From: an uncultured Bacteroidales bacterium
GTDB lineage: Bacteria > Bacteroidota > Bacteroidia > Bacteroidales > Bacteroidaceae
Assembly (NCBI GenBank): GCA_902801485.1
Contig: CADCIP010000010.1
Span: 25,465-89,464 of the forward strand
Direction: 5' to 3'
Length of the DNA: 64,000 bases
The notes under the pieces are model-generated. The model had not been told where the DNA came from. It searched no databases and saw nothing but the letters and a program-made list of their open reading frames with translations. Made by a program: the position numbers and the translations under genes. Shown here piece after piece: positions 42,753 to 59,835 of this stretch; the first letter of the stretch is position 1, and each line of letters starts with the position of its first letter.

Positions 42753-42778
42753 GGCTCTGTTTTAAACACTTTGCGGAG

Positions 42779-42786
42779 CAAAGTTA
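42779..42786 (-). promoter_or_regulatory. Proximal -7 box TAACTTTG for the 7536-aa gene, 27 nt upstream of its ATG. It is overlapped by the palindrome ACTTTGC-gga-GCAAAGT (42768-42784)
   Basis: Exact TAnnTTTG match on the minus strand, with TTTG 19 nt further upstream. Confidence 0.5.
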
Positions 42787-42965
42787 CGTATAAGCGAGAG
42801 AATAACAAAATAAATCGAAGATTTTTTTTTGTTTTTCCGAGCGAAAGTAAGTTAGAACGCAGTTCAATGTTACGCATAAGTGAGAGAATAACCAAAAGAA
42901 ACGGAAGTTTTTTTTGGTTTTTCCGAGCGAAAGTAAGTTAGAACGTAGTTCAAAGTTACGCAAAT
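42779..42965 (-). repeat. 86-bp direct repeat, 2.2 copies, each carrying a -33 TTTG / -7 TAAC[TA]TTG promoter-like pair
   Basis: The reverse complement of the -7 box (caaagtta / caatgtta / caaagtta) occurs at 42779, 42865 and 42951, an exact 86-nt period. The units are about 85 percent identical by eye. Confidence 0.85.
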
Positions 42966-43166
42966 TTGGCAATACCGCCATTCACTTTTTGTGAACTACC
43001 ACCCTTTAAAAGAACTATGGTTATTCAGAGTGATTACATCTAATGAGATGGTTATCATAAAAACAAGCTCTTACCCCCAAAACATTATCTATACCCTTCA
43101 GCAAAATTAGAACATCGAAAGACCTTCTTGAACACGGATTTCACGAATCACACGGATAAGACTAAC

Positions 43167-43314
43167 GCGGTAGCAGATGCTCTCAGGCAGCGGCATTTGT
43201 GCCACTGACAGTGGTAGTGCTTGCTGTCTTTTACTCTGAAAATGTATTTTCAAGATAAAAGAAAGTAAACCTACTTAGCGTACAGGGCCTGTACGCCTGA
43301 GCATCTGTTACCCC
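43167..43314. other. About 148-nt element closed by an 18-bp long-range inverted repeat, with internal hairpins. Either a structured RNA or a MITE-like element
   Basis: GGTAGCAGATGCTCtcAGGC (43170-43188) pairs with GCCTGAGCATCTGTTACC (43295-43312). Internal hairpins are GCCACtgacaGTGGT and the perfect 18-nt palindrome GCGTACAGGCCTGTACGC (43279-43296). Confidence 0.4.
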
Positions 43315-43406
43315 ACCGCAAGGATTTCTTAAATTTGGTTTAATTTCTCTCGGAGCGTAGCGGCGGAGTAGTACAGAAGAAAAAGAGAGTCGCCTGACGT
43401 CTCCAT

Positions 43407-43540
43407 TTGTTCAGATAGGGTTAATGAGTTGTTCAGATAGGGTTAACGAGTCATCGAGATAATCCCTTTGGGGGGTAAGGGATTATCTGAATGAGTTGTG
43501 GAGATAAGGGGAATGACTCATTGAGATTATCTGAATGAAG
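43407..43540. repeat. Cluster of direct and inverted AGATA[AG]GG / TTATCTGAATGA motifs (iteron-like)
   Basis: A 22-bp direct repeat TTGTTCAGATAGGGTTAA[TC]GAG x2 (43407-43450). A 12-bp perfect inverted repeat AGATAATCCCTT/AAGGGATTATCT (43457-43488). ATTATCTGAATGA occurs twice. Confidence 0.8.
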
Positions 43541-43675
43541 CAAAGGTGACAGGGTCACATTTTTCAACTTAATTACAGCTCAAAATCAAGTTAAATAAAA
43601 AATTTTTCAAGTTGATCTCTGTTTGGAATTAACCTATTCGTTACAGATATACCAGAAATATTATACTCTCCTTTT

Positions 43676-43757
43676 CCGCTTCGCTCCAAGAAAATCTCCA
43701 GCAATCTACAGCAATTATTCGGAAGGCCAAAGGCCTAGTAACTTCGGAGCGAAGCGG
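43676..43757. other. 12-bp GC-rich long-range stem (CCGCTTCGCTCC / GGAGCGAAGCGG) enclosing about 58 nt, 9 nt downstream of the 4447-aa gene stop. Possible 3' end structure
   Basis: Complementarity read directly. There is an inner GGCCaaaGGCC hairpin. No U-tract follows on the minus (sense) strand. Confidence 0.35.
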
Positions 43758-43766
43758 TAACTTCTT

Positions 43767-46700
43767 TTACTTAATATACAACTTCTTCTTATTAACAATG
43801 TACGTGCCTGGTGCTGTGACAGGTGTGATGACCGTCTTACCCGGCTCAAGCGTGTAAGATGCCAGCAATGCACCTGTAGCATTGACAATGTGGATGGTCT
43901 TAGCCGTCTTCAGGCCAGATACGGTAACAATGCTTCTGCCACGAGCGTAAATCTCTATTCTACCGGTATCTCTGCTCTGCAGATCCTTGTCAGGCTCAAT
44001 GGTACCACTGGCAACATTACTGAACTCAATGTAGTTAACCTCCCTTACACCATTGGATGGTACTGTAGTAAAGTACGGACGGAAGGCCTCTACGGTAACG
44101 GCATCACCCTCAGTAGGTACCTTATTATACCTGTCACCATCTTCATTGAGCGCCCATGCTGTTGTACCTGCAGCCAGCGTCTGGTTCATGTAGCTGGGAC
44201 GGAAGATATAACCGTTCTTTGTTGCTTCAGCCTCTGCCTCTAAGATTTCGTCGTCGCTCACGCGGATAGTGATAGCCGGATTAGAAGCGAAGGTAATAGT
44301 CTGCTTATCCAGTTTCGCGGGCTCCTTTGCGGTGTTCAAAGGTATGAAGCTACCGCTTAGGTCGAACTCGTAGTAGGTTGAACCTGGGAAGCCAATCAGG
44401 TATGGCGTAGCCTGGGTGAGCAACGGGTATCCGTTGTATTCACGTTTCTTCTCGTAATAAGTCCTATACAAATCCGTGTTCGCATCTTTCTGGTCATGAC
44501 CACCTTGAATTCCCTTGTAGTAGTAATCCCACAGGAAAGTATTCGTTACATCCTTCTTATTGTTGTTATCAGGATCTGGGTAGGTAAAGTTGGCAACCTT
44601 GACATTATTGTTTGCGTCCTTATCCGTGATTTTTTCTAACTTACGCAGCCAGTATTCATGACCTGTGTCACTGCCCTTATAGAAGTGCGAAATTTCACCC
44701 TTCTGCTGTGTTGTAACCAGTTCAGCGGCGAACGGCAGACTGATGCCTTGCCAGCCCTTCGTCAGGGCATCCTGCGTCAGGGTTACAAACTCGTCGTCGT
44801 CCGGTGTACGTTGGTACCACATGCGCTTATCGCTGGCAAATTTGTATGAGATAGGCGCATTAAAGTCGTTCTTATCTACCAGGAGGTGGTCGTTCACAGA
44901 CTCATACTTGATACCGTCGTTCGCAGGATTTGCCATCTTCTGAACCCAGTGACCTTGTATAGCATACATATTAGCTGCCACGGTGCGATAGCCCTCAGTA
45001 CTTTCTGCGTAAGTTGGGTCAGCAAGAGCGGCGCTCACGGTTGTAGCGGTCTTTCCATCGGCAAATGTGTATGCCAACAGGTTCTTTGTCAGGTCGATAT
45101 TATTGAATCCAGTCAGACCATCATCGTCCAGCAATGGAGCATAGAACTTAGTGCTGGTATTGTTTGGCCCGAACTTTAACTCATAAGCATTCTTGGTCCC
45201 ATTAGCGGCATACATATCATTGTAGCCAGAGAAGTCAATGGCTGTCATATCCTTATGTGCATCGTGGGCCGTTACATTGGCAGCTATCTGTTCTGCTGTC
45301 AACTTCTCGCTTTGTGTAAAGATGGCGTATGGGTTAAAGTAAGCTACACCCATATCTTTGCTGCGGAAGTATGCCGGAGCACGATATACACGGTTACCAT
45401 ATTCGTTCGTCAGCAAGCGGCTGTTGCTACGGATGATAGGTGCAGGCAATTCCTGATGACTGAGACCCGTAACCTGGTTGTAGTTCAGTGCCTGACCGAA
45501 GTACAGATAGTCGTCTGGCCAGATGGGTGAGAAGTAAACAACATCAATATCCTGGTTGTTTTCATCCTGCTCCGTCACAATCCTCATACGTATGTCGGTT
45601 TCATCGGGGATGGTACCGTTGGCATAACGGTAGTCACCATCCTTGAAGCGCTGCTCTACATAACCACGTCTTCTTGCAACATCTTCAGTTCCAATGGGAT
45701 AGTAAGCGTAATTATAGGGATAGTCACCTGTGCTCATTTTTTCGGGCAGAGTGCCATCAGCATTGGGCTGGAGGTAGTTATATTCTACCTTAGTTCCAGT
45801 CCATGACTTGTTGTTGTCATAATAACGCTTGCGCAAGTAGAATCCGTTCAGGTTGTAAGCTACTTCACCGTTGAAGAACGACTGAGCAGGCATTGGGCGG
45901 GCAATACCTCTACCATCATCAGTGTCTTTATACGTATTGGTATTTAGACTGTAGCAGTTTTCAATCTGTGTACCACTGCCCACTGTTTGACCAATAATAG
46001 CCTTAGTGGTGTTAACTGGCGTTCCTGTAGTCATTACCCAGCAGTTCTCGGCATAACCCTCATCTGCGTAATCTGCAACACCACCGCCTGTGAATGAACC
46101 TGTAACACCTAAGTTATATACATTACCACAGAGTTTGCTGAAGAGGGAACTGGTAAGGCCGGTTATCTTGTGACCATCACCATGCAAGGTACCTTCGAAG
46201 CAAATATCATTTGCAGGGTTATCATCGTCATCATTCTTGCCGATAGGTGTCCATGGGTCATCTTCATATACTGCTGGATTCTCGGTTGTAGCAGCTGTTT
46301 TTAGTTTCTTGCTATGGTCAATATCCGTACGCAGGATGAATTGCAACTTGTTAGCTCCCTTCACACGACTCTCCATTGGAACGTGTCCTGCCAGAGTGCC
46401 AGTTCCGCCTATTGGATCAGGTTTACCATCATGGTCTTCGTCTTTTTGTTCTATCAAGCTTAAATCAAACAATCGCTTCAACTCATCCAGACCGTTCTTT
46501 GTGGTTTGGGGATCGTTGGTTGTGTAATCATTGATGTATATCTTAGGCTCACGCTTTACACCACTATTATCAATGTGCATGTGGTGTGTCTTGTTGGCAT
46601 CAGACATCACCTCTGCCAAGTCGTGGTAGTTGGCCACGCTTACAGGCACATGGTTAGAGTAGGTACGGCCCAGATAGGTCTTTGCGTAGTAAGCCACATA

Positions 46701-49700
46701 CCAATCATCCTGATACCAGTAGAGCGGGTCGTACTGCGGGTCGTAGTCGATACCGTTGACGTGACTTTCTGCATCTCCAGGTGTCTCAAACAACTCCCAT
46801 CCACCACCGGTGATTTCGTATGCACCAGGTGTTACGTCAGGCTCCATCATACTGATATATTCGCCTGGTATAATCATGCTGGGCTGGATGATATCTTCTA
46901 CGGTAGGTACACCACTCTTGAACTGCAGGTGGATATTAACCACATGACGTTCACTGATAGGAGTTACATTACCACTAGCATCACTCTCCTCATAGTCGTA
47001 TTGGTAAATTACGGTGATAATCTTCTCCTTAGAGAGATTATAGATATCAGAGTTTCGGGCCACATAGAACGTACTGGTCTCTGTGGGAGATATGCCATGG
47101 ATGGTGAAATTCTTCTGGTCGTTGGGGAGATTTGAATAGCGATAGAAGGTGAGGCCATGATCGGTGTCATCGGTGCCAATGATTGCTCCTACAGGTACAG
47201 TTGCCCCTGCGCCATAACTATTATTGTTACTACCCTTGATACTCTTTACTGCATTGTCATTATTTCCTATATTATAGCTATTTTTGCAATAATAGTAGTC
47301 TTTGCCTTCATCTTCACTATCAAAATGTAATACAGTAACTTTAGCTTTCTCCTCGTCTGTCAGGTTATTATAAGCCTCTTCAGTAATTTTATCTCCAACG
47401 TTTTTGTTTTCAAATGCAGTGTTGACTACATAGTAGTCGCCAGCTTCCTCCACATGGATTGTTTCATAATTCGATTTTTCAACATCAGTCAGATTATTGT
47501 AGCCTTTGGTTGTGACGTTTATGTCGGCGGTACTGATGATAGTACCTATAGTGACCTCATCGCCGTTATAATAATTTTTACCCTCACGATCTCTAACGGG
47601 ATTCTTATCTATAGTATAATTCTCTCGGCAATAATAATAAGTTCCAGTTTCACTAAATGGAATAATATCTATTTCTTCCGGATTTTTCACAATTTCACCA
47701 TCCGTTTCCTGTAGGCTGACAAACGTTGCATTGTCAATGGTTGTACCTACTGCATAAACTGTATTGCCTATCTGGAAGGTTTTATTGACGATGTAATATT
47801 CGCCAGCTGTTTTAACATCAATAGCAGCATAGTGACGCTGTTCATTGTTCAACGACTCATAAACTTCTCGGCTCAGTTCGTCTCCCTTTTTAATTTCATC
47901 ATCGGTTACGATTGTCGGCACATTATTTTCTACACGTTTGATGCTAATGTCATATCCTAATTCCTTGGTTTCGTTGCTATTGTATGTGGCTGTATAGTCG
48001 ATTGGAGTTTCCAAAGAGTAAGTGGCAGGATTAGCTTCTGCTCCATCCGGAGTACCTGCTGCGCTGTCATACTGGTACTTTTGACCCTCTTCGTGTACTA
48101 TGTTACCCTCTTCATCCTTGCTATAAAGTGAGTCAATGAGAAGGTCAAGAGCATCATAGTTGAAATCGAACTTCTGACGGTCTGTTTCAGACATTGAACT
48201 CCAAGCCTCCAAGCCACGATAGTTCTTACCTGATTCATAGTAGTTTCCGCCAAAGAGTCCTTCCTTGGTACAATAGTAGGCGGGAACAATCTTCTTTGTT
48301 ATTTCCTCTCTCAGAGTCACTAACGATGTCAGTGACTTCTTTTTATCAGTTTCTATTTCTAAGGCCTTGATTTGTTCTGGCGTTAACTCCCCGGCATCAT
48401 CCATAATCTTATTCATGTCAGCTTTAACTGAGTTAACATAACCGGTCATCTCACCGTAAGTCATCTTACTGTTCATGTAGATGAATTCGTCCTTACTCAA
48501 TTTGATGGTACTGGTACAGATGTATGCAGGTTCTGCCTTTCCTTCGTATTCAGTATTGGTTGTGGCTTTCGTCTTAGAAATAGTTGAACCAATATTCTGA
48601 TGGTGGGTTTCGCCAGTCTCATCGTCCTTAATGCTAACCTGCTGAGTTACAATGTAGGCTTCTTCGAAGTTGGCTTGTTCACCATCCTCTGGAGTTACTT
48701 TTTTGTCAATTTGACTATTGTTGTTGACATCCTCTCCCGAATCAAGTGTGCCATTGTTGTTGACATCTTCATTGATATTCTTCACATACGTGTCATAGAC
48801 ATCCGAAGAGATGAGTTCACCAACCTTATAGCTAATCTGTCCAAGAACGCTACCAGTTCCAGATTTAAGATGGTAGGTGGGGCCGTCGTGATAGAGCAAC
48901 TTATCTTCGGTAGATTTTGTTTCGAATGTAGAGACAGAAATCTTCTTGTCCTCGTTTCCAGTGGGTGTAATCTTTGTATACCAGGTATTCCATAATTCAG
49001 GGTTATTTACCTTATAGGTCAGGATATAACCACGGTTGTGACTCACATTATTAGATGAACGGAAGATATAATCTTCATCCGCATTTTTCTTGTTTGCATC
49101 CTGAATAGTATTGCCTTCGACATCTTTGTAAGTATGCGTTCCGTAATTTGCAAGCTCATTTGGTGTCAGAACTATGGTCCCGGCAGGATGAACCACAGGG
49201 TCATCATCTATACAAACATCTACGCAATTGACGTAAGTTTCCGGTTTAAACAATTCTTTTTCAGAAGCACTCAGCAGGTTGTAGTCCCAATAGCTGATAG
49301 GATCGTTCAGATAGTAGACCTTGTCGTTAATAACAATTTTTTTGCCACTTTCCAGTTTTACACCGGGAGATGCATAGTATGCATAGTAGTTAGGCTGTAC
49401 ATTAATTAAATGCATCTTTCCGTGTGACGCAGCAGCAATGGTCAATGGGATGTCTATGGTCTCACTGAAAGCATTGGGATTACCCGTGTAGGCTGAGATG
49501 TACTGGTCGTATACATATATCTGACCCTTGATGAACCAGTAATGGGCAGGTACAAAGTCTGTGCTTAGATAACGACCACTGACATTGTAGCAGTCATCAA
49601 TAATAGTCTGGGTGCTGTGTACAAAGTTACCTGAGGTCTCCCATTCATACTTGTTATTATCACTAGTATCGTATTGATAGTCCCACTTAGTAACGGCACC

Positions 49701-52700
49701 ATTGTTCAATGCCGTCAGCGTAGTATTTTTGTGATTGGTTTTGCTGCGTTTGCCATGTTCGTTCTTGGCATAGACGAATCCACCACCAATACCGGTCTGC
49801 ACATTAATAAGGTCAAGCTCTATGACACCGGTAATGGGGCCCCAAACTTTTTCGTTCAAATCAGTTCCAGTACTCTCCTCTGTGGTCAACTCCAAATATA
49901 CACCGGATGCCAAGGCCACCTTGTTGTGGCTGTTTCCATTATTGCGCTTATGCTCCTGATGGAAGGCTTTTTTCCATTTGTAGAAGTCGGTGCCGGGCTG
50001 ATTATACACATAATTTGTATAGGTGGGGTTATCTTCATTATCAACTCCGGTTTGTATCTTTGCATCTTCTTTATAAATCGAGTTATTGTTATCTGTTGTT
50101 CTGATATCGCCGGCACCATCTTCACCGCCAAAGTCCACGTCGCTAGTCAGGGCGCCTAAGTAGTTTACAATGTTGTAAATACCAAAGTAGTTACCATGCA
50201 TATAGCCATCGGTATCTACTGCATCACCTGCTGTGGAAATCTTCTTGTTCAGAGAGACCTCACGAACACGGTTAATGGTGTAGTTGGTATAGTCCATGAT
50301 CTCTGGTACACGGTCCTGTGCTCCCTGCATCACCATACGGCTACCAAAGACACCACAGAAATCAGCACGTTGGATACTGTTCATCAGTCTGCCGGCATAA
50401 ACAGGCAAAACTCCGTTCTCTTCCCAATAGGTATCATTGGGTTCCCAAACTTCATTTGTTTCATTATAGTTAAGAATAGCAGTAGTGCCATCTTTGACAG
50501 ATTCATATTTCTTTGTTGTCTCGTTATATTCAAGGAACAGAGTCAGCAAGTCATCTGCTGTGATGGTTGACGCCTTAGTGTTTCCATCCTCGGCGTAATA
50601 CCAAGTATGTTCTTTATCCTGACAAGTTTTCTTGCACTTATATTTCAACTCATAGTAAGCAGCCTCACGATCAGGTAGGGCTTTGTACTCAGAGATTGTA
50701 ATTTCTTTTTTAATGGAATAGTAATCGGTACCATAGTTGGTGATGTTCAACTCACGGTAGCCATCTACCAGTGTCAGGTTACCATCACCATACAGACCAC
50801 CGGTATGACCTGTACCCAGTGTGATCATATCGCGGTGATAGATATCGTGGACAGAGGCGGTGGCATTACCAAATACTGAGATGGTATTGGCATTGGTGGT
50901 GGAACCTGATGAGGTGTTACCACCAGCAAATACAGCATTATGGATAATGATACCAAAGTCATCAAGTTGTCCCCATGTGGCTTTATCTTCAGAGTCGTTT
51001 TTGGCCTTTAATGTATTAAGGGCAGCAATAGGAACATAAGTGCCAGCAGAATAGGTGCGATCGAAAGTAATACCGGCTGGGTCAATTACGTTTCCAAAAA
51101 TATCTATTTTGTTTTTGTAGCTATCATTCTCTTTCAGGTAATTAAAGTCTATTGTGGCGACTTTTTCGCCTACTGCATAATGAATACCTGTGAAAGAGGC
51201 CGTTTCGCCAGTCTTAACTTTACACTGTGGCTCAATAAGTACCTTGCAGTCCTCTGTAAGCATTCTTTCTTCCTTACTGGTTGAGCCTGTAGTCACGGTT
51301 TCTGTGATGAAACCTTGAGAATCTATGTTTGAACCAGTGGAGTTGTCGCCATACCATTTGTGTTTGTAGTAATAACCTTGATAATCATCTTTATAGCGTT
51401 CACTTCCTTCGGGTTTCACGCCTCGGCCAAACTTAACAACCTTCTCGTTTCCTGAAGTTACCTCTTCGTACTCGTAAGCACTGTACACATATCCAATATC
51501 GCCACCACCAAAGACGTTGCCGTCACCATTGGCTGTGCCTGCAGTAGTTCCAATCTCTCCACCATGGATGTGCACCTCAGTTTGACCAAAGATGTAACCA
51601 TCACAGTTAAGCTTACCATGTTCATTCAGGTTGTTGTATCCACGACCGCCACCAAAGACATTTCTGTGTACATGACCACCAAACATTTCTACATCAGTTC
51701 TACCGGGACGGTAAATACCAACTAGCGTGCGGGTAGTCTTGCCTCCAGTGGAAGATACGCTCATTTTTCCACGACCAATAGCTGCAATCTCACCTCCACC
51801 AAAGACACTATTGCGGATATGGCCGTCGTAGAGATTTACAAAGGTCTTGTCAACGCTACTGTTGTCCACGTAACCACCGCCAAAGACGCAGCCGGCTTCA
51901 TAAAGACGAGAGTTGGGAATATGATTGCCGTCTTTATCTTTGTGCGTATCGTCATCTATCTTCTCAACATAACGTTCATCGTGATCTGTTTCTTGGTCAT
52001 CTTGTAGAGCGGCATTATATTCATATCCAATATATCCATTGTTAATGGTTACGTTAGAATTACCATAAATGGGAGCACCCTCGCCTCCACCATATACGTT
52101 ACGTGTAACGGCGGGAATACCACTTGTGAAATTGTTGCCTTCAACATAAAGGTCACCAATCACCACATTGGTTTCGCCTGGAATGTCATTTGTTGGTGCA
52201 TCGCTAAATTCACCTACGTGCTTGCCGACTTCACCATTCCAACCGCCGCCATAGACATTACGACAAGTACCACCCTTGATGTAAACATTGGCACTGGCCG
52301 TAAAGTTCTTGCACTCTACAGAATCCTGAACGGCACCAGAGGTTCCAGCGGCATAGATATCCTTATTTACCTTACCACCCAGCAATGCAATATAAGTGGT
52401 ACCGGCTACCTTGGCATATTCACCCAAGCCACCACCGTAAGCATAGTTACCTACGTAGGCACCTTCGTTGATGATAACATTGGTGTTGAATTTACCGCCG
52501 GTGTTGCCCAAAAGTTCTTTGGTTCTGCCATCCATCTCATTGGCAGTTCTGACAAGTCTATCATTGCTTAGATTCGTCCAGTTATTAGCTGTGTAATTGC
52601 GTGAGCCTTGTGCATCCGAAAGGGGATCAAAATAAAAAGAACCATCTGAGTAGGTACCAGACAATCTCCATGCTTCGTAGGGGATTACAATATCTCCATC

Positions 52701-55700
52701 TTGTTTACCAGGTCTGTCGGGTGCATAGTCATTCATGTACTTTTGAACACTCTGTGCATTATACACTTTTCCGTCCTGGCCGCCACCATAGACCTCCCAA
52801 ACCTCAGCACCATCGTTCAGGTTGACCTCGGTGTACTCCGACCATGTGTCAGCACCCAGTCCGGCACCAAAGATGTAACCGGTACTACTACCATATTTCC
52901 AATGTTCTGTATTGACGGGCGAGTTGATGTTTACCTTACTATAGATGGTACGGCGCTCGTTGTTATTACCACCATAGATGGAACCTCTCTGTAACGGATC
53001 TCCAACAGGTTGTTTCGTATCCTCATCTATTCTTGGTGGGTTGTAAATGAGTAGGGCGTCTTTACTACTGTATATCACATTGGCCTCATAAACATCACAT
53101 GGGGTCCAATAGTTCAATCCGTAAGCGCCACCAAAGATACTACCAATCTTGATGGTAGATGTTTCGGGAACATTTACTACGGTACGCAATGTAACGCCTT
53201 CTTCATAACTGCCACCGTATGCAGCACCAATCTGACCGCTCATCAAATCAATAGTGGCTGTAGCTTCATCCAAAACGAAGTCTTCTTCATAGGTTTCTTT
53301 TTTGCTATAGCGCATACCCATACCGTTTCTTCTGCCGGCACCGAATACCTCGGTATCTCGGAACGGTTGTGGTGTCTTACCCTCATCATATCCTGGGAGG
53401 TTATAGAAAGGTAAATTTATAAGAACGTAGCTGTGGTCTTGCATCTTGTCACCTTCCAGTCCTGCTGCACCCTGGCCACCACCAAAGACTTTGGACAGAT
53501 GGTTAAAACTGGCAAAAGCGCTGTTCGTGATGTTCTCATCAGGTCTGATATCGACAACAGCGTTATGGTTGTATGGCATATAATCACCTACGCGGCTCTT
53601 GTATTTGGGATCTTCGTAGTCATAGTCGCCATAACAGCCACCAAAGATACCAATGGCGTAACCTTGATCATAATGAGTATAGGTGGTGGCAATCCTGTTT
53701 TGATTATTAAGGTTTACTGTAAAATTATCTGCGTTCAGGATGCGACCTCCCAAATCGTTGGCGCCATAGGTGTAATCACGAATGAAGGGGTAACCGCCTT
53801 CCTCTAGTCCGGATGCATTCAGACCTTTTCCGATGTACGTCTCGGCATGACCCAGCACATCGGCATTACATGCACCGCCCCAGGAGTTGAAGATACGTCC
53901 ATTGCCCAGATACACGCGGGTATCGCCTATAACAGGTCCTTGGAAACCACCACCATAGGCAAACTCGATATCTGCCATGTCTTCTCTTCCGTTAACATCA
54001 GAACGTGGCGTTCCGTATTTGTCTGCAGTACCATGCAAGTTGATGGTGGTACTGTATGCGGGGTTGTACTCGTATCGTTTGCCGTTGAATGAGTAGTAGC
54101 CAGTAGTCTTGTCATAAGTTCCATCTGCTGCATTACTTGTGCCAGTGGATTTACCAATCACACCTTCCTCACTACCACCAAAGACTTGGAATGTATAACT
54201 CTTCTTAACGTTGATGGTAGTGCTGCCCCATACCTCGGAGTCTTTACCATAGCCTCCAGCAAAGACGTTAAGGGCAGAACCCAAAACGTCCATACCCTGC
54301 TCGTCGAGGATTACACCCGAGTTACGCTGGGTAATGTGATATTTGAAATCTTCTGGATGGTCGTACAATGAGCGGTCCGGATCGTTGCTGACAACGGCAA
54401 AGACTTCGTCGCGCTTTACCAAATCATTTTCCAGATTTATTACGATATTGCCGTTTACATGTCCGCTATGGTAGCAGCCTCCATATACGTTACCGCCTAA
54501 GAGACGGCGGGCAATGTCATCATCAGTTGCATCACCGGTACCTGAGCCAGAAGTTGTCTCTACAAAGCCATTGGTCCATTCATAGTAATTGCTTCCGTCG
54601 GCAGCTTCATTTCCTGTAGCGGTATATTCGGTATATTTGTTGTTGCTTTCTTTCGTGTAATACTTCTTACCTTCCGTTAATGTAGTACCATTGGGTACAG
54701 CGGTATAATCCTCCCACTTAACGGTGTTCCATTCCAATGCGTTGTCTAATGTTGTACCGGTTTCGGTCAACCTCTTGGGTTCAAACCGGATACCTTTTCC
54801 TTCGTAAGGCGTGAAATTCAGCTCCAGACGGTCTTTAATCTTTTTGTTTTCGCCACTGCCCTCTGTGTATCCATCAGAGTTTGCTCGTTCAGCCAGACTT
54901 CCAATAATTCCACCATCATATGCTGCATTATAAGGGCCTTCAGGAACGTATGCATCGTTACAACCACCGACAAACTTGTTGTAGATGGTAATGGGAGCAT
55001 TCAACGTCATGGAGTTTTCACCACTATACGTCATACTGCCTACATTTCCACCTAAGAAGAAACTACCGATATAGCTGGAATATGGTATGTAATCCTCTTT
55101 GTCGGCAGGAGTTTTTTCGAAGGATAGGGTGGGCTGCATATCCAAGGCGGCTCCTTCCATATATTCAGCAAATGTGGAGGCGTCCTGTTTAAAATCAATG
55201 GTAAAGTAGTCTGTGTAACCGTCTTCAACTTTTCCGATTTTTCCATCTTTATCAACGCCTTTGGCATAAAATTCCAAAACGTCCTCTTTAACCATGCCCT
55301 CTCCGTTGTTGCCAAGGAATACGTTCTCGGCAATAACATGGGAACCCATTTTAAGTTCTACCAAAGGGCTCTCCATGCTGGATTTCAGCGTAGCGCAGTT
55401 TCCTCCTAAGAAAACCTTACCACGGATGATGGTGGGCTCCTGAGCACTTTTCCCTCTCAAATGGATGGATACCTGCTCTGCATTGGGGCGGAAATCGTTA
55501 AGAGCTCCTATAATAGACGTAGCCCCCGAGGGCTGCTCAAAATAAAGGTCTTTGAAGTATGGGTGGCTCGCTAGTTCTGGGTTGTTTGTATATGCGTATG
55601 CACCGTTACCACCACCATAAACATCTCCACGGATACTGGTTCTGATGCCCACTGCATTACCGCCCGTTACCTTACCCGTAATGTCGTTACCACCATAAAC

Positions 55701-57110
55701 GTTGTTGATGTCTCCACCAGCAATTACCAAACGTGCCGACAAACCGGGCGGGAACTTATATTTGGGGTCCTCCAGCTTGATGTCCTCAATAGCTACATAG
55801 TCGGGCTCAAAAGTATCATCCGGAACATCTGGTTCCAGCTTTCCAGATTTCAATGGTACAACATCAGCCATACGGCAACCGCCAAAGACGTTGTCCACTT
55901 TAAGGGTTGAGGTTTCTGGTATTTCCAGCAGCAGACCTACGGGACTGGTCATGGCTCCCTTGTTTCCACCGCTGTACAGGTTACGGACCTTACCGCTCTG
56001 CAGGTCCCATTTGGGACGGATAGCCATTTCAGCCATATTGTTTCCACCAAACATACGACCAACCTGGAAGGCATCGCTGGAAGGATAAGATAAGGCAAGG
56101 TTGATACCCATGTCCCTGAAACGTGCATCTATCAGCAACTCACCAGCATGCTCATCGTCACCAGCATTTTTGCTTGTAATTCTTGTATCCTTAATGCTGG
56201 TTACTACCTCACTGGGGTTGTCATAATGAATGACAGTTTCTTCTGTTATGGTAGCGTTGTTACCGCCTCCGTAAACATAGTCGATGGAGCCTCCCTCAAG
56301 ATCCAAGAATGTCTTCTGCAACTCCGGTCGGTTAAAGCCGGTTTCGCCAGGCTCTGTAATCTTTGTGGCGATAACTGTGTTTTCACCTACATTCTTGATA
56401 GTGTGGATGATTTTTCCGTTTCCGTCAGGTTTTTGTTCATAATCATATTCACCATTACCACCGGCAAAGACCTGACCAATGTATATTTTGCCTTCTTGTG
56501 CTTCTGTCTTTATATCATTGGTAGTTCTAAATCCTTCATCGCCTTCTTGCAGACTATTTGCTGTGTTGTATTCATCGCATTCTGCCTGTGTATAGTGAAC
56601 GGCATCGGTTTTTGTTGTTCCAATATGAACATAACTGTTCCAGGTGTTATCTACACCTTTTGCGGTAGCATCTCCAGAGGTTAACCACGTGGGTAGGTTT
56701 GCTGTGCCAATGTTACCGGAGATGTCATTACCACCAAAGACTTGGTTAACTACAATATAGTCACTTGCGGTCTTGCACGTTACATTAACAGATGTGTTAC
56801 CGCCCACATTGGCCATACGGGCACCACCAAATACCTTACCTCTTGGGTTGTCTAATTGCTTATCGTTGTTGGTATAGCGCGATCCTATATCACCAGCCTT
56901 AACCTCAACCTTGGTGCTACCTTCCACATTACCTTGGTTACCACCACCATACACATTACCACCAATACGGATTTGACCGTAAACATTGAACATTGAACAT
57001 TGAACATTGAACATGAAGATAAAGGCCATAAGCCCCCTAAGCCCTATAGATTTTATGGGGCTTATAAGCTGCTTCATTATGGTCTTTATTCTTCTCATTC
57101 TTTTTATCAA
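43767..57110 (-). CDS. Giant T9SS cargo protein (4447 aa in the ORF track; probable ATG at 57098): beta-solenoid N-half, mixed middle, GLUG-like region and C-terminal sorting domain
   Basis: Uninterrupted 13.3-kb ORF. The track start is TTG, and the first ATG gives MRRIKTIMKQ.. . Repeats of the type GNVYGGGNQGNVEGSTKVEVKAG occur in the N-half. The C-terminus is a T9SS CTD (see feature 43770-43973). Confidence 0.9.
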   Translation of the reverse strand: MIKRMRRIKTIMKQLISPIKSIGLRGLMAFIFMFNVQCSMFNVYGQIRIGGNVYGGGNQGNVEGSTKVEVKAGDIGSRYTNNDKQLDNPRGKVFGGARMANVGGNTSVNVTCKTASDYIVVNQVFGGNDISGNIGTANLPTWLTSGDATAKGVDNTWNSYVHIGTTKTDAVHYTQAECDEYNTANSLQEGDEGFRTTNDIKTEAQEGKIYIGQVFAGGNGEYDYEQKPDGNGKIIHTIKNVGENTVIATKITEPGETGFNRPELQKTFLDLEGGSIDYVYGGGNNATITEETVIHYDNPSEVVTSIKDTRITSKNAGDDEHAGELLIDARFRDMGINLALSYPSSDAFQVGRMFGGNNMAEMAIRPKWDLQSGKVRNLYSGGNKGAMTSPVGLLLEIPETSTLKVDNVFGGCRMADVVPLKSGKLEPDVPDDTFEPDYVAIEDIKLEDPKYKFPPGLSARLVIAGGDINNVYGGNDITGKVTGGNAVGIRTSIRGDVYGGGNGAYAYTNNPELASHPYFKDLYFEQPSGATSIIGALNDFRPNAEQVSIHLRGKSAQEPTIIRGKVFLGGNCATLKSSMESPLVELKMGSHVIAENVFLGNNGEGMVKEDVLEFYAKGVDKDGKIGKVEDGYTDYFTIDFKQDASTFAEYMEGAALDMQPTLSFEKTPADKEDYIPYSSYIGSFFLGGNVGSMTYSGENSMTLNAPITIYNKFVGGCNDAYVPEGPYNAAYDGGIIGSLAERANSDGYTEGSGENKKIKDRLELNFTPYEGKGIRFEPKRLTETGTTLDNALEWNTVKWEDYTAVPNGTTLTEGKKYYTKESNNKYTEYTATGNEAADGSNYYEWTNGFVETTSGSGTGDATDDDIARRLLGGNVYGGCYHSGHVNGNIVINLENDLVKRDEVFAVVSNDPDRSLYDHPEDFKYHITQRNSGVILDEQGMDVLGSALNVFAGGYGKDSEVWGSTTINVKKSYTFQVFGGSEEGVIGKSTGTSNAADGTYDKTTGYYSFNGKRYEYNPAYSTTINLHGTADKYGTPRSDVNGREDMADIEFAYGGGFQGPVIGDTRVYLGNGRIFNSWGGACNADVLGHAETYIGKGLNASGLEEGGYPFIRDYTYGANDLGGRILNADNFTVNLNNQNRIATTYTHYDQGYAIGIFGGCYGDYDYEDPKYKSRVGDYMPYNHNAVVDIRPDENITNSAFASFNHLSKVFGGGQGAAGLEGDKMQDHSYVLINLPFYNLPGYDEGKTPQPFRDTEVFGAGRRNGMGMRYSKKETYEEDFVLDEATATIDLMSGQIGAAYGGSYEEGVTLRTVVNVPETSTIKIGSIFGGAYGLNYWTPCDVYEANVIYSSKDALLIYNPPRIDEDTKQPVGDPLQRGSIYGGNNNERRTIYSKVNINSPVNTEHWKYGSSTGYIFGAGLGADTWSEYTEVNLNDGAEVWEVYGGGQDGKVYNAQSVQKYMNDYAPDRPGKQDGDIVIPYEAWRLSGTYSDGSFYFDPLSDAQGSRNYTANNWTNLSNDRLVRTANEMDGRTKELLGNTGGKFNTNVIINEGAYVGNYAYGGGLGEYAKVAGTTYIALLGGKVNKDIYAAGTSGAVQDSVECKNFTASANVYIKGGTCRNVYGGGWNGEVGKHVGEFSDAPTNDIPGETNVVIGDLYVEGNNFTSGIPAVTRNVYGGGEGAPIYGNSNVTINNGYIGYEYNAALQDDQETDHDERYVEKIDDDTHKDKDGNHIPNSRLYEAGCVFGGGYVDNSSVDKTFVNLYDGHIRNSVFGGGEIAAIGRGKMSVSSTGGKTTRTLVGIYRPGRTDVEMFGGHVHRNVFGGGRGYNNLNEHGKLNCDGYIFGQTEVHIHGGEIGTTAGTANGDGNVFGGGDIGYVYSAYEYEEVTSGNEKVVKFGRGVKPEGSERYKDDYQGYYYKHKWYGDNSTGSNIDSQGFITETVTTGSTSKEERMLTEDCKVLIEPQCKVKTGETASFTGIHYAVGEKVATIDFNYLKENDSYKNKIDIFGNVIDPAGITFDRTYSAGTYVPIAALNTLKAKNDSEDKATWGQLDDFGIIIHNAVFAGGNTSSGSTTNANTISVFGNATASVHDIYHRDMITLGTGHTGGLYGDGNLTLVDGYRELNITNYGTDYYSIKKEITISEYKALPDREAAYYELKYKCKKTCQDKEHTWYYAEDGNTKASTITADDLLTLFLEYNETTKKYESVKDGTTAILNYNETNEVWEPNDTYWEENGVLPVYAGRLMNSIQRADFCGVFGSRMVMQGAQDRVPEIMDYTNYTINRVREVSLNKKISTAGDAVDTDGYMHGNYFGIYNIVNYLGALTSDVDFGGEDGAGDIRTTDNNNSIYKEDAKIQTGVDNEDNPTYTNYVYNQPGTDFYKWKKAFHQEHKRNNGNSHNKVALASGVYLELTTEESTGTDLNEKVWGPITGVIELDLINVQTGIGGGFVYAKNEHGKRSKTNHKNTTLTALNNGAVTKWDYQYDTSDNNKYEWETSGNFVHSTQTIIDDCYNVSGRYLSTDFVPAHYWFIKGQIYVYDQYISAYTGNPNAFSETIDIPLTIAAASHGKMHLINVQPNYYAYYASPGVKLESGKKIVINDKVYYLNDPISYWDYNLLSASEKELFKPETYVNCVDVCIDDDPVVHPAGTIVLTPNELANYGTHTYKDVEGNTIQDANKKNADEDYIFRSSNNVSHNRGYILTYKVNNPELWNTWYTKITPTGNEDKKISVSTFETKSTEDKLLYHDGPTYHLKSGTGSVLGQISYKVGELISSDVYDTYVKNINEDVNNNGTLDSGEDVNNNSQIDKKVTPEDGEQANFEEAYIVTQQVSIKDDETGETHHQNIGSTISKTKATTNTEYEGKAEPAYICTSTIKLSKDEFIYMNSKMTYGEMTGYVNSVKADMNKIMDDAGELTPEQIKALEIETDKKKSLTSLVTLREEITKKIVPAYYCTKEGLFGGNYYESGKNYRGLEAWSSMSETDRQKFDFNYDALDLLIDSLYSKDEEGNIVHEEGQKYQYDSAAGTPDGAEANPATYSLETPIDYTATYNSNETKELGYDISIKRVENNVPTIVTDDEIKKGDELSREVYESLNNEQRHYAAIDVKTAGEYYIVNKTFQIGNTVYAVGTTIDNATFVSLQETDGEIVKNPEEIDIIPFSETGTYYYCRENYTIDKNPVRDREGKNYYNGDEVTIGTIISTADINVTTKGYNNLTDVEKSNYETIHVEEAGDYYVVNTAFENKNVGDKITEEAYNNLTDEEKAKVTVLHFDSEDEGKDYYYCKNSYNIGNNDNAVKSIKGSNNNSYGAGATVPVGAIIGTDDTDHGLTFYRYSNLPNDQKNFTIHGISPTETSTFYVARNSDIYNLSKEKIITVIYQYDYEESDASGNVTPISERHVVNIHLQFKSGVPTVEDIIQPSMIIPGEYISMMEPDVTPGAYEITGGGWELFETPGDAESHVNGIDYDPQYDPLYWYQDDWYVAYYAKTYLGRTYSNHVPVSVANYHDLAEVMSDANKTHHMHIDNSGVKREPKIYINDYTTNDPQTTKNGLDELKRLFDLSLIEQKDEDHDGKPDPIGGTGTLAGHVPMESRVKGANKLQFILRTDIDHSKKLKTAATTENPAVYEDDPWTPIGKNDDDDNPANDICFEGTLHGDGHKITGLTSSLFSKLCGNVYNLGVTGSFTGGGVADYADEGYAENCWVMTTGTPVNTTKAIIGQTVGSGTQIENCYSLNTNTYKDTDDGRGIARPMPAQSFFNGEVAYNLNGFYLRKRYYDNNKSWTGTKVEYNYLQPNADGTLPEKMSTGDYPYNYAYYPIGTEDVARRRGYVEQRFKDGDYRYANGTIPDETDIRMRIVTEQDENNQDIDVVYFSPIWPDDYLYFGQALNYNQVTGLSHQELPAPIIRSNSRLLTNEYGNRVYRAPAYFRSKDMGVAYFNPYAIFTQSEKLTAEQIAANVTAHDAHKDMTAIDFSGYNDMYAANGTKNAYELKFGPNNTSTKFYAPLLDDDGLTGFNNIDLTKNLLAYTFADGKTATTVSAALADPTYAESTEGYRTVAANMYAIQGHWVQKMANPANDGIKYESVNDHLLVDKNDFNAPISYKFASDKRMWYQRTPDDDEFVTLTQDALTKGWQGISLPFAAELVTTQQKGEISHFYKGSDTGHEYWLRKLEKITDKDANNNVKVANFTYPDPDNNNKKDVTNTFLWDYYYKGIQGGHDQKDANTDLYRTYYEKKREYNGYPLLTQATPYLIGFPGSTYYEFDLSGSFIPLNTAKEPAKLDKQTITFASNPAITIRVSDDEILEAEAEATKNGYIFRPSYMNQTLAAGTTAWALNEDGDRYNKVPTEGDAVTVEAFRPYFTTVPSNGVREVNYIEFSNVASGTIEPDKDLQSRDTGRIEIYARGRSIVTVSGLKTAKTIHIVNATGALLASYTLEPGKTVITPVTAPGTYIVNKKKLYIK
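43770..43973 (-). other. T9SS (Por) C-terminal sorting domain, type A-like
   Basis: The last 68 aa are RDTGRIEIYARGRSIVTVSGLKTAKTIHIVNATGALLASYTLEPGKTVITPVTAPGTYIVNKKKLYIK. The pattern matches Por_Secre_tail: ..I.v....v..l.G.....i.N..G..v.......g...i.....GtYiv. Confidence 0.75.
45950..46215 (-). other. GLUG-like region of the 4447-aa protein
   Basis: ICFEGTLHGDGHKITGLTSSLFSKLCGNVYNLGVTGSFTGGGVADYADEGYAENCWVMTTG..IENCYSLN shows the same F.GT.(D/H)G.GH.I.GL..LF....G.v.NLgv pattern as the head of the 7536-aa protein. Confidence 0.4.
56980..57014 (-). repeat. In-CDS heptamer repeat ATGTTCA x4 (+ ATGTTTA) in the signal-peptide region of the 4447-aa gene
   Basis: The plus strand reads taaacat tgaacat x4. 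The coding strand encodes FMFNVQCSMFNVYGQ. Each unit contains an ATG. Confidence 0.9.
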
Positions 57111-57265: not shown

Positions 57266-58573
57266 TTAATTCAGTTCCACCGTTGGATTATCCAGATCCC
57301 AATTTCCTAACTGGTACAGGTAGGTGGGTTTTAGGGTCAGTTTTATTGTATATTTTTTACCTCTGTCCAGGTATGGAATGCTGTTAAACAGTCTATACAT
57401 ATCTATTTTGTTTTCCACTATGCTATTCTTTCTGATCAGATGCTCATCACTTCTGTCATAGACATCATAGGTGCTGCGCAGCATATAGAAGTTGTTTATG
57501 TTGGGTACTACGTAGGCGTAATCCACATTATCTGTGTATTTTAATTCCTCTGAGTTTGCCACCGTTCCAGATGGAATCTCCACCTCGCCATCAAAGAATG
57601 TTATGAATGGCATAGGGTCACCAGTAGCGTTTTGTGAGAAGGTGATACTCGTGATGGGCGATGTTCCACCTGTTGCATCATCGTTAGCTGTCAGCGTTAC
57701 GGTAGCGTTAATTCCCTTTCGCTTCATAAGCGTGTTGTCATCATCGCTATTGTATGACGAATATCCCCTCAACTCCAATTTCTTCAACTTTATTTTACGC
57801 AGCGCTGCGTAAGTGTCATCAACATGGAACTGGAAGTCTATAGCAGCGTACAGGTGCTCAAAGAGCATGAAGAGGTAGTTGTGCGTATCAGCTCCGTTGT
57901 ATATGGTACAGGAGAAATCTCCTCTTCTTAGGGTCTTTTCGTCTGCGATTTCTGTGGCCGATTTACCCTCTTTCGCTCCCACCAGAATGCAAATATCTTC
58001 ACCTGATACGCTACCCATATTATTGAGAGTAAGTATAGCACCATTATCATATGAACTGTTAGGAGCAACAGAGGATGCCCCTGTCGCCTCATTTGGCGAG
58101 AAGCCATAGAGATACTGTATGCCAGCAGGTGCCTCTTTATCAATAATCCATTTGTTGGGAGTGGTGGTAGTATAATACCAGATATGCCGTTGTTCGACGG
58201 TTGTTGAATAGGTAAAGAATGCGCCAATAGAAGAATGCTTTATAGGTTCATAATAACCAGTAGGTGGTGTCCATTCATCAGCACGTGTCCCAGTGCTCTC
58301 CACATCCTCATAAGGTGCCAAGTAGCTCATTATCTGCACGGGAGCACCCTGCTCCTCAGCAGGTGGAACCTGCTCTGAGGAGCAGGAAGAGAAAATGAAG
58401 GCTGCGATTAAGAGAGAGGAGAGCCAAACTAGTTTGAGCTTTCCCGAACGTGAGCAGGCTCGACCGAAGGTCAAGAATGAAGAATGAAGAGTGAAGAATA
58501 GGCATAATATGCTCAGGCTCATGGATCTCATGGGCTTTATAAGCTTGCTTATTATGGTCTTTATTCTTCTCAT
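57266..58573 (-). CDS. Fimbrillin (Mfa-like, type V pilin)-family lipoprotein, 435 aa, with an unusually long N-terminal leader
   Basis: Lipobox ..AAFIFSSC at Cys64, then ..STGTRADEW (Arg97). An internal LYAAIDFQFHVD-type strand and overall beta-rich composition resemble the neighbouring pilin-like genes. Confidence 0.7.
   Translation of the reverse strand: MRRIKTIISKLIKPMRSMSLSILCLFFTLHSSFLTFGRACSRSGKLKLVWLSSLLIAAFIFSSCSSEQVPPAEEQGAPVQIMSYLAPYEDVESTGTRADEWTPPTGYYEPIKHSSIGAFFTYSTTVEQRHIWYYTTTTPNKWIIDKEAPAGIQYLYGFSPNEATGASSVAPNSSYDNGAILTLNNMGSVSGEDICILVGAKEGKSATEIADEKTLRRGDFSCTIYNGADTHNYLFMLFEHLYAAIDFQFHVDDTYAALRKIKLKKLELRGYSSYNSDDDNTLMKRKGINATVTLTANDDATGGTSPITSITFSQNATGDPMPFITFFDGEVEIPSGTVANSEELKYTDNVDYAYVVPNINNFYMLRSTYDVYDRSDEHLIRKNSIVENKIDMYRLFNSIPYLDRGKKYTIKLTLKPTYLYQLGNWDLDNPTVELN
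58472..58499. repeat. In-CDS heptamer repeat [CG]AAGA[AG]T x4, the same family (opposite orientation) as 924-944
   Basis: caagaat gaagaat gaagagt gaagaat. Encodes LFFTLHSSFLTF in the leader of the 435-aa protein. Confidence 0.85.
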
Positions 58574-58704: not shown

Positions 58705-59835
58705 CTACCAATTATACAAATCATATTTCTGTTCACCACCATCATTCCAGTTTATCACACCCGTGTGGACCATATCCAGTTCCACACCACCACTCTCATT
58801 TATTTTAAATATGTACGTGTAGCTGTAGCTTGGCAGCCAAACCATATATTGTGCTGGTACCGTACAGTCTTTTTCCTCACCATTCACGGTTAATGAAAAC
58901 TCGTAGGCTCCCTGATTGCGATTAGGTACTACAGTGTACCATGGGCCAGCAGGAATAGCTGGGGTGACGCTATTGTCTCCCTCCTTCCAGGGAGTTGAAA
59001 GTTCTGCCATTGATGTCAACTCATCAAATTCTGTTGTTTCCCAACTCTCCTCCGTAACATTTCCGGTAATAGGGTAGGTTACTGTATAGGTACAATTGGT
59101 GTAGATGTCCTTTCCCTCTGCCATGGGGTGGAAGCTATAGTCTTTTAAGGTTGGGTCTAACTCATTTTCACTATTCTTTACAACGCGTACTATAAACCTT
59201 ACCTTAGCCAGAGGCTTTATAAACTTCAGGGTTACCGCCTCACCAAAAAGGTTAGTGCCTGTGTTGTCCGAGAACCATAGCTTGCTGTAGTATGGCGTGC
59301 TGGACTCATTCAGGGCATTGGCGGTAAAAGAGGTTTCGTAGGTGCCATCTGTGGTATTTTGGGTCACCGTTGCATCTGCCGATGTTCCTGTTACCGCAAA
59401 GAAGCGGTAGGCCTTGGCAGACCAGTCCCAGTATTTAGGTGTCTGGTCGGGATAAGCGATAAGGATATAGTCCCAACTGTTAGAGTTGGTAGTCGAACTG
59501 CCGGCGCTGTTATCTGCATATCTTACGCGGTATTCGTTCATAACCGTCTGGTAGGTAGAGTAGGGATTTCCCTGAGGCCCGTTGTTTTTAAAGGCCCAAA
59601 CGCGGAAAGATGTAACACCCGTGTTTTGCAGAGGAGTGCTGCCGGCGCGCGTCACCTCCTCGTCCTGCTGGTTAGCAGAGAAGGCGATAACCGTCTGCAA
59701 AGGCTCCGGCTTCTGCGGTTCCGGCACGTGATCGGAAGAGCAGGCCCCCACAAGCCCCATAAGCCCTATAAGCCCCACAAGCCCTATCAGCCTCATAGCC
59801 CCATTTGCCTTATAATCTTCCTCTCTCTCTCTCAT
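58705..59835 (-). CDS. Fimbrillin-family lipoprotein, 376 aa in the ORF track (probable start Met14 at 59796)
   Basis: MRLIGLVGLIGLMGLVGACSS lipoprotein signal (Cys32 in ORF numbering), VIAFSANQQDEEVTRAGS (Arg63), and VTLKFIKPLAKVRFIV, a fimbrillin-like strand. Confidence 0.75.
   Translation of the reverse strand: MREREEDYKANGAMRLIGLVGLIGLMGLVGACSSDHVPEPQKPEPLQTVIAFSANQQDEEVTRAGSTPLQNTGVTSFRVWAFKNNGPQGNPYSTYQTVMNEYRVRYADNSAGSSTTNSNSWDYILIAYPDQTPKYWDWSAKAYRFFAVTGTSADATVTQNTTDGTYETSFTANALNESSTPYYSKLWFSDNTGTNLFGEAVTLKFIKPLAKVRFIVRVVKNSENELDPTLKDYSFHPMAEGKDIYTNCTYTVTYPITGNVTEESWETTEFDELTSMAELSTPWKEGDNSVTPAIPAGPWYTVVPNRNQGAYEFSLTVNGEEKDCTVPAQYMVWLPSYSYTYIFKINESGGVELDMVHTGVINWNDGGEQKYDLYNW
59749..59802 (-). 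repeat. Six in-frame 9-nt units of the CATAAGCCC family encoding the signal-peptide h-region (LIGLVGLIGLMGLVG)
   Basis: cacaagccc cataagccc tataagccc cacaagccc tatcagcct catagcccc on the plus strand. Confidence 0.9.

Follow-up and report, generated by a model that had tools for sequence, protein, structure and literature searches.

A giant, probable type IX secretion cargo encoded beside type V pilin-like lipoproteins in rumen Prevotella

The giant gene and its orthologs

We analyzed 64,000 nucleotides (nt) of DNA from an uncultured Bacteroidales bacterium (GenBank assembly GCA_902801485.1, contig CADCIP010000010.1, positions 25,465 to 89,464; hereafter the window), in which a minus-strand gene for a protein of 4,443 amino acids (aa), giant 1, lies between four genes for pilin-like lipoproteins and a gene for a second, 7,536-aa protein, giant 2. 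An earlier note on this DNA had described giant 1 as type IX secretion system (T9SS) cargo encoded in the position of the pilus protein Mfa5. Our analysis of its sequence and of structural models indicates that giant 1 is a probable T9SS cargo of type A, named for the type of its C-terminal sorting domain (CTD). The following features were assigned to the gene.

43767..57098, minus strand: giant gene 1, 4443 aa from the ATG at 57098, stop codon at 43767-43769
56976..57098, minus strand: predicted 41-aa signal peptide, MRRIKTIMKQLISPIKSIGLRGLMAFIFMFNVQCSMFNVYG, with cleavage before Gln42 (by inspection and ortholog conservation)
56982..57014, minus strand: 7-nt tandem array, ATGTTCA x4.7, which codes for the signal-peptide residues FNVQCSMFNV (repeat detection)
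50919..56975, minus strand: Gly-rich xFGGG repeat region, aa 42-2060, presumed beta-solenoid rod (motif count and hhalign)
49239..50981, minus strand: most conserved central core, aa 2040-2620 (block identity across orthologs)
47109..47843, minus strand: two tandem modules of ~115-120 aa, aa ~3086-3330 (motif spacing and Smith-Waterman alignment)
47376..47675, minus strand: second module copy, aa 3142-3241, lineage-specific (gaps in the ortholog alignment)
45939..46205, minus strand: start of a putative GLUG/M26_N-like beta-helix, aa 3632-3720 (hhalign and AlphaFold)
43770..43958, minus strand: predicted T9SS type A sorting domain, aa ~4381-4443 (TIGR04183/PF18962 at family level and AlphaFold)

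The minus-strand frame 43767..57110 is open for 4447 codons counted from a TTG, and its first ATG is at 57098; both codons had been reported correctly before. Many orthologs have a plain 20-aa signal peptide that starts MR[RK]I.TI, and since the 41-aa leader of the window copy begins in the same way when read from the ATG, this codon is likely to be the true, ancestral start of the gene. The predicted mature product has a computed mass of ~478 kDa and a computed pI of 4.7.

To place the gene among its relatives, we scanned one genome per GTDB species, which yielded 329 relatives, and examined the loci of 80 of the 329. All 80 loci are in Prevotella, Prevotellaceae, Bacteroidaceae or Bacteroidales genomes, except for one in an unclassified bacterium; most are from ruminant gut metagenome-assembled genomes, and one is from an isolate, Prevotella sp. 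tc2-28 (L071). A single uninterrupted ortholog frame of 3,723 to 4,465 codons is present in 69 of the 74 loci that are long enough to judge, including that of the cultured isolate. Orthologs are collinear with giant 1 along its full length, and the window open reading frame (ORF) is conserved from end to end. The family is uncharacterized and, as judged from these sequences, is confined to Prevotellaceae and related Bacteroidales, mostly of the rumen.

We also considered the explanation that the ORF is spurious or decaying, or that the gene is normally split. Homologs of giant 1 in protein databases are pieces of 1,000 to 2,080 aa, the copy in locus L001 has frameshifts, and the copy in L003 has a lone in-frame TAG at ~9899-9901 (YYQL-stop-YKC, compared to YYELKYKC, with Lys, in the window), all of which would fit such an explanation. 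However, the database pieces begin at arbitrary positions within conserved regions, the breaks in the giant gene of L004 and L005 are scaffolding runs of N, and the loci in genomes are mostly intact, so that a gene normally split in two is ruled out in general and refuted for the window copy, whose frame is unbroken. A contig of the same strain (L005) is 99.7% identical to the window across 10 kb, showing that the giant ORF is not an assembly artifact. We conclude that the ORF is real and that a spurious, decaying or split gene is hardly credible.

Regions of the giant 1 protein

By inspection, the leader MRRIKTIMKQLISPIKSIGLRGLMAFIFMFNVQCSMFNVYG has a basic n-region followed by a hydrophobic core and then a site of small residues, YG/Q, which would leave Gln42 as the first residue of the mature protein. 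In 58 of 73 orthologs an AxA-type site is followed directly by Q-I-x-I-G-G-N-V-Y-G-G-G, and the remaining 15 have a short N-terminal spacer inserted, most of them still with Gln after the predicted site. Bacteroidota proteins habitually keep an N-terminal Gln once signal peptidase I has cut, and the conserved AxA/Q site of the orthologs fits this habit. The leader of the window lineage is longer than the plain form by ~21 residues. It had been described in the earlier note as built from repeats, and the extra residues are indeed encoded by simple DNA arrays, namely ATGTTCA x4.7 and, preceding it, a GGGCTTA-like stretch that resembles 9-nt units elsewhere in the window. The ATGTTCA copy number is identical in L005 and in L001, a 96-97% relative, and the peptide FNVQCSMFNV[YF][AG] is kept in four other species (L016, L017, L018 and L057). 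Equal copy number, conservation of the peptide and the ubiquity of such arrays rule out phase variation through the 7-nt array, and on present evidence the sequence gives no sign that the leader is a contingency locus.

The N-terminal half of giant 1 is Gly-rich, as had been noted before: Gly content is 12-16% in aa 1-2000 and then 6-11%. The motif [VIFLYAM][FYWALVI]G[GAS][GASCN] (xFGGG) occurs 32 times in aa 42-2060, compared to 3.0 ± 1.7 in shuffled sequences, an approximately ten-fold excess, and once in the C-terminal half. The tightest motif spacings are 25-27 residues, the canonical value, while most are longer and irregular. The profile of aa 1530-1890 matches three separate parts of giant 2 in several registers (hhalign probability 93-97%), showing that the repeats of the two giant proteins are homologous. 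Searches of Pfam and of PDB sequences gave no match to this half (aa 1-2133 searched), and BLASTP of giant 1 against itself found no internal repeats at E<1e-3. From the repeat pattern alone, we presume that the N-terminal half is a solenoid.

The most conserved part of the protein is the central core (aa 2040-2620), in which 50-residue blocks are up to 82% identical, compared to ~45% for typical orthologs, and which carries invariant Asp, His, Arg and Cys positions, with invariant residues in, for example, RADFCGVFGSR and NNGNSHNK. Pfam gave chance-level matches to the core, and no PDB relative was found. A search of the core against 1.84e9 proteins returned 170 cluster representatives; those of full length are giant proteins that carry the core in their middle part, and the shorter ones are fragment-like. 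The conservation of the core and its invariant residues could mean that giant 1 is not an adhesin but a secreted or surface enzyme or processing module, with its activity in the core and the repeats as a spacer. However, the core has no relative in Pfam or PDB and is found only inside the giant 1 family, and equal conservation would be expected of a folding nucleus or of a site for protein-protein docking. We therefore consider an enzyme of this kind improbable.

Tandem modules of about 90 aa had been proposed for the middle of the protein, and the tandem repetition is real, with a Smith-Waterman score for the module pair of 135 against 36 ± 6.8 in shuffled sequences (14.6 standard deviations above). 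However, the distance from AGEYYIVN to AGDYYVVN is 121 aa and that from one YYYC motif to the next is 114 aa, so the modules, of which there are just two, have a period of ~115-120 aa rather than 90. Of the aligned sequences (58 orthologs), 98% have a gap in place of the second copy, and the alignment indicates that this copy is a recent duplication and not part of an array of 90-aa units.

The GLUG-like region of the earlier note lies where it was placed, at aa 3633-3716, and the call is a weak one. Pfam Glug (PF07581) and Peptidase_M26_N (PF05342) do not match the 200-aa GLUG-like stretch even at E<=10, but profile-profile comparison with the true Glug region of giant 2 gave an hhalign probability of 85% (E 6e-6). 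An AlphaFold model of the last 1,199 aa, built with 53 sequences, has a mean predicted local distance difference test score (pLDDT) of 75 and contains a helix of short strands at model residues 340-475 with a pLDDT of ~90. The PDB profile search of this C-terminal segment gave only 3n6z, a "putative IgA1 protease," at E 0.46. The GLUG/Peptidase_M26_N helix of IgA1-protease-like proteins is thus matched by a true Glug region in giant 2 (29.4 bits) and, in giant 1, at the profile-profile level only (aa 3632-3720); unlike those proteins, neither giant protein has a peptidase domain, and giant 1 has no Pfam Glug or M26_N match.

The ~650 aa between the GLUG-like stretch and the CTD gave only generic Ig-like Foldseek matches, as did the whole 1,199-aa model, with TM scores of <0.07 relative to the query. 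Across all 4,443 aa, Pfam gave no match at E<0.1, and NCBIfam and Pfam together gave no family above cut-off, the sole relevant weak match being TIGR04183 at 16.9 bits. PDB sequence searches with aa 1-2133, 2040-2620 and 3245-4443 found nothing significant.

The type A sorting tail proposed in the earlier note is borne out by the family more than by the window copy. TIGR04183, which has a curated cut-off of 23 bits, scored 16.9 bits against the whole protein, 20.8 bits against the last 100 aa and 21.2 bits against the last 85 aa, all of them below the cut-off, and PF18962 did not match the window copy. In contrast, TIGR04183 matches 50 of 60 aligned family tails at E<0.01, with a best value of 9.7e-9, and PF18962 matches 11 of 60; the tail consensus across the family is L.I....I.VTS.L....DVRIVN.AG.T...F.I.PGETVET.V...GVYIV....G...KK..VK. 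In the AlphaFold model, a disordered linker with a pLDDT of <50 (model residues 1117-1134, aa 4361-4378) precedes a sandwich of seven C-terminal beta-strands (model residues 1137-1198, pLDDT 55-80), in agreement with the proposed tail. A functional T9SS has been reported in Prevotella intermedia, whose CTDs are unusually short (PMC10897501), and short CTDs may likewise be the reason for the low TIGR04183 scores here. We accept the tail as a predicted T9SS type A sorting domain at the level of the family, and from it we infer export.

Neighboring genes

The genes on either side of giant gene 1, and the gap that follows it, were assigned as follows.

62007..63944, minus strand: 645-aa lipoprotein with a predicted type V pilin fold (conserved residues and Foldseek)
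59935..61863, minus strand: 642-aa pilin-like lipoprotein (33% identity to the 645-aa protein, E 7e-66)
58705..59835, minus strand: 376-aa lipoprotein, paralog of the 645- and 642-aa proteins (BLASTP E 5e-11 to the 645-aa protein)
57266..58573, minus strand: 435-aa pilin-like lipoprotein ORF, directly upstream of giant 1 (Mfa_like_1 in 2 of 36 orthologs)
42753..43766: ~1-kb gap separating the two giant genes; contains repeats of 86 bp (x2.1) and 22 bp but no ORF of >65 aa
20142..42752, minus strand: giant gene 2, 7536 aa, CTD-less (profile scans and motif count)

All four upstream ORFs are on the same strand as giant gene 1 and encode a Cys-containing signal followed by a Thr-Arg-Ala site. In the family of the 645-aa protein, Cys19 and Thr48 show no variation, and conservation of Arg49 is 90% or more (Thr48-Arg49-Ala50 in the window); another alignment of upstream pilin-like proteins has the consensus CSS...TRA. 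The 645-aa protein has >7,000 homologue clusters; the best 120 matches listed are 63-73% identical, apart from one identical sequence, and carry no pilin-type Pfam domain. Neither the 645-aa nor the 642-aa protein has a Pfam match. The AlphaFold model of the 645-aa protein is weak (pLDDT 62), and its twelve best Foldseek matches in the PDB are Bacteroidales type V pilins or "cell adhesion proteins" of the same fold, led by 4qb7 (E 5e-7, probability 1.00), 4gpv, 4k4k and 4jg5, with Mfa4 and Mfa1 lower. At the position of the 376-aa protein, whose signal peptide is encoded by a 9-nt array, the L003 gene matches Pfam P_gingi_FimA at 26.3 bits, compared to a cut-off of 21.4. The only PDB match of the 435-aa ORF family is the fimbrial protein BF1861 (3sy6, E 0.057). 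The start of the 435-aa ORF puts ~60 residues before the lipoprotein Cys, and gene callers give 357 aa on L003 and L005; the true start is probably later. The first 23 nt, encoding MRRIKTI, are identical in this ORF (58551-58573) and in giant gene 1 (57076-57098).

Beyond the window end at 64000, the same-strain contig (L005 345-6040) has a DUF3575 protein of 522 aa at the head of the locus, a DUF5119-like protein of 394 aa, a ParE-type toxin-antitoxin pair and a third pilin-like paralog of 631 aa. DUF3575 proteins are common at the head of Bacteroidales fimbrial loci. On sequence and model evidence, we classify the upstream lipoproteins as type V pilin-like. The likeness to Bacteroidales type V pilins (4qb7, 4gpv, 4k4k, 4jg5; Mfa1, 5nf3; Mfa4, 5dhm) is one of the upstream genes and not of giant 1, and it consists of the lipoprotein signal, the conserved Arg site and the top Foldseek matches; the known pilins have 256-336 residues, while the 645- and 642-aa proteins are about twice as long.

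Mfa5 of Porphyromonas gingivalis is a T9SS-dependent accessory protein of a type V pilus that has a signal peptide and a CTD, is encoded at the end of the mfa operon, and contains a MIDAS-bearing vWA domain as well as Ig-like domains that have an isopeptide bond (PMC7835359). Giant 1 resembles it in having a predicted signal peptide and T9SS CTD and in being encoded after genes for lipoprotein pilins of the FimA/Mfa fold. However, giant 1 has no vWA or isopeptide Ig-like domains, consists to a large extent of ~2,000 aa of Gly-rich repeats and a core of no known relative, and is followed by a gene for a CTD-less giant protein. Thus, the "Mfa5 position" of the earlier note holds as a place at the 3' end of a cluster of type V pilin-like genes, but giant 1, lacking a vWA or any other Pfam domain, is not an Mfa5 homolog.

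It might nevertheless act as Mfa5 does and, after T9SS export, be incorporated at the tip of a type V pilus that the upstream lipoproteins form, rather than simply anchored to lipopolysaccharide (LPS). Such a role would agree with the lipoprotein Cys and Thr-Arg-Ala site of the upstream proteins, with the order of pilins followed by a CTD protein (an ortholog of the 435-aa ORF is directly upstream of the giant gene in 71 loci), with the place of Mfa5, itself a protein with a signal peptide and a T9SS CTD, as the last gene of its operon (PMC7835359), and with the DUF3575 protein that heads the locus in the same strain. It would have to accommodate the lack of a vWA/MIDAS domain and of Mfa5 homology detectable with Pfam, the low confidence of the 645-aa model, and a cargo of ~480 kDa with a 7,536-aa partner, far above any known pilus tip protein; nor is there a known mechanism for incorporating CTD proteins into type V pili. 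We regard this role as possible, though rather unlikely.

On the other side of giant gene 1, the gap contains an 86-bp repeat (x2.1, 42779-42962) and 22-bp repeats (43407-43538). In 19 of the 80 related loci, a conserved 427-aa ORF lies between the giant genes (L003 15937-17220); by eye it had given the impression of an IS200/RAYT transposase, an identification that we dropped because Pfam gave only weak PKD matches.

An ortholog of giant gene 2 is found downstream in 56 of the 58 loci that have at least 4 kb of downstream sequence. The signal peptide of giant 2 ends WG/Q, its N-terminal part has two CHB_HEX_C_1/Fn3_assoc units and Glug motifs, and its 117 xFGGG motifs run to the very end. The statement in the earlier note that this neighbor is CTD-less was confirmed by profile search, and a CTD hidden downstream of it is ruled out, as rpsO comes next and there is no CTD-like ORF. 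In more than 100 of 120 cluster representatives, the C terminus of the giant 2 family is GNV[FY]GGGD.G.VKKD..V.[IV]G[ED] plus 0-8 residues (window 20145-20210), and a few homologs run on with BACON domains past this motif, which could be a docking end or an unrecognized sorting signal.

When the end of giant 2, VFGGGDAGIVKKDTEVIVGE, is joined to the mature start of giant 1, QIRIGGNVYGGG, the motif spacing across the junction is 27 residues, compared to 25-27 in the most compact internal turns, and the joined sequence closely resembles the internal turn VYGGAKGGLVKKDTEVNLKGGRIYHDVYGGG. Together, the two termini would complete one solenoid turn, and the proteins could stack end to end. In a split solenoid of this kind, the uncapped C-terminal turn of giant 2 would stack on the uncapped mature N-terminal turn of giant 1 (pyroGlu-I-x-I-G-G-N-V-Y-G-G-G) to give a fiber of ~12,000 residues, with giant 1 and its CTD as the cell-proximal anchor and the CHB_HEX_C/Fn3_assoc and GLUG modules of giant 2 as the distal tip. 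We consider this arrangement doubtful. It is consistent with the internal-like spacing at the junction, with the conservation of both ends (the terminal turn in those more than 100 of 120 representatives, the mature start of giant 1 in 58 of 73 species), with the repeat family that the two proteins have in common, with the conservation of the pair and with the avoidance by both of an O-glycosylation sequon, described below. However, complementary ends would be expected by chance about 1 time in 10, many giant 2 orthologs have 4-8 extra residues (PVTP, EKVTP) or BACON domains past the motif, 15 of 73 giant 1 orthologs have an N-terminal extension, and the arrangement leaves unexplained how a CTD-less 7,536-aa protein crosses the outer membrane. 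If it is true, it would explain the retention on, and perhaps the carriage to, the cell surface of a protein without a sorting domain; docking of the termini would be a new way of building and anchoring a very long surface fiber, and it would offer a system in which to test whether a protein without a CTD is displayed in a T9SS-dependent manner.

In P. gingivalis, surface proteins are under negative selection against O-glycosylation (PMC10897501). The Bacteroidota O-glycosylation sequon D[ST][AILMTV] occurs 3 times in giant 1 compared to 16 expected (z -3.3) and twice in giant 2 compared to 26 expected (z -4.8), and giant 1 orthologs have a median of 3 compared to 14 expected. The sequon is also absent from the four pilin-like ORFs (57266-63944), while variants with E, N, Q or K in first place show no depletion. 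This sequence bias is an independent hint of a surface destination. Also bearing on the depletion, a 524-aa protein (3167-4741, minus strand) fits the NCBIfam model of an O-glycosylation flippase, Oglyco_Wzx, with E 1.7e-174, a score below the model cut-off. In a 981-aa ORF (8464-11409, minus strand), which has no NCBIfam match and follows an array of heptamers longer than any other in the window, the sequon is enriched, with 7 occurrences compared to 2.5 expected.

A predicted surface fiber and related systems

Taking these data together, we propose, with a probability of roughly 0.6, that giant 1 is a T9SS-exported, LPS-anchored cell-surface fiber protein of ~478 kDa in rumen Prevotella. As suggested by its sequence and conservation, the protein would leave the cytoplasm by Sec export, with removal of the 41-aa signal peptide exposing the N-terminal Gln, and would then be exported by the T9SS through the CTD that is recognized at family level. 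By analogy with established T9SS biology, the CTD would be removed and the new C terminus joined to anionic LPS. Because anchoring is C-terminal, the C-terminal 2,400 residues (core, modules and GLUG-like helix) would lie near the cell and the ~2,000-residue Gly-rich rod would point outward. The three parts of the conserved locus, the type V pilin-like lipoproteins, giant 1 and CTD-less giant 2 with the same repeats, may act together, and the likely outcome would be adhesion or the formation of a surface coat in the rumen. The proposal draws on the intact ORF, the signal peptide site, the family CTD, the xFGGG repeats, the synteny and the sequon depletion.

The following observations weigh against it. 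The window copy alone fails the curated CTD threshold and has no Pfam CTD match. Pfam, PDB and Foldseek searches identified no binding or catalytic domain, so the name adhesin is a guess from the architecture. The best-conserved part of the sequence is the central core and not a distal tip, which is unusual for an adhesin that binds a host or substrate and leaves room for an enzymatic or docking role. The observations of the earlier note were thus largely right once details are corrected, and its interpretation is partly supported, with respect to the probable T9SS cargo, the pilin context and the CTD-less neighbor; the adhesion, surface exposure, T9SS dependence and coupling of the partner or the pilus that it proposed are putative.

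SprB and RemA, two surface adhesins of Flavobacterium johnsoniae, are repetitive proteins of very large size that are exported by the T9SS via a C-terminal domain and form surface filaments, and giant 1 is similar in size, repetitiveness and possession of a predicted T9SS C-terminal domain. SprB has a type B CTD and serves gliding motility, while Prevotella is non-motile; the CTD of giant 1, unlike that of SprB, is type A-like, and Pfam revealed no similarity in sequence. As judged from sequence, neither giant protein has a characterized homolog. A giant T9SS surface protein beside type V pilins is a known theme, and the giant 1 family is a variant of it that is itself new.

Relatives of Prevotella dominate the rumen, yet little is known about the means by which they adhere to feed particles or to other microbes. 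The locus is present in hundreds of rumen Prevotellaceae species, as represented by the 329 relatives among GTDB species genomes; it combines two export routes that are usually studied separately, lipoprotein type V pilins and T9SS cargo, and includes a 7,536-aa protein without a recognizable outer-membrane export signal. Its occurrence in the cultured isolate Prevotella sp. tc2-28 makes experiments feasible.

An Rfam scan of the window gave no match. Most intergenic regions of the window contain short tandem arrays with units of 6-9 nt, mostly 7 nt, and the unit sequence varies by site. These arrays are found at the following positions.

443-477, 4052-4087, 7393-7446, 8205-8455, 14377-14482 and 15525-15568: short-unit arrays
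16447-16472, 19014-19086, 57109-57228, 58592-58691, 59746-59804 and 61935-61958: short-unit arrays

One example of an array unit is CCGCTAA, present as x27.9 at 8264-8455. Several arrays extend into the 5' ends of genes, where they code for parts of signal peptides, as does the 9-mer CTTATGGGG for GLIGLMGLVG of the 376-aa ORF, and comparable arrays are found in orthologous leaders from other species.

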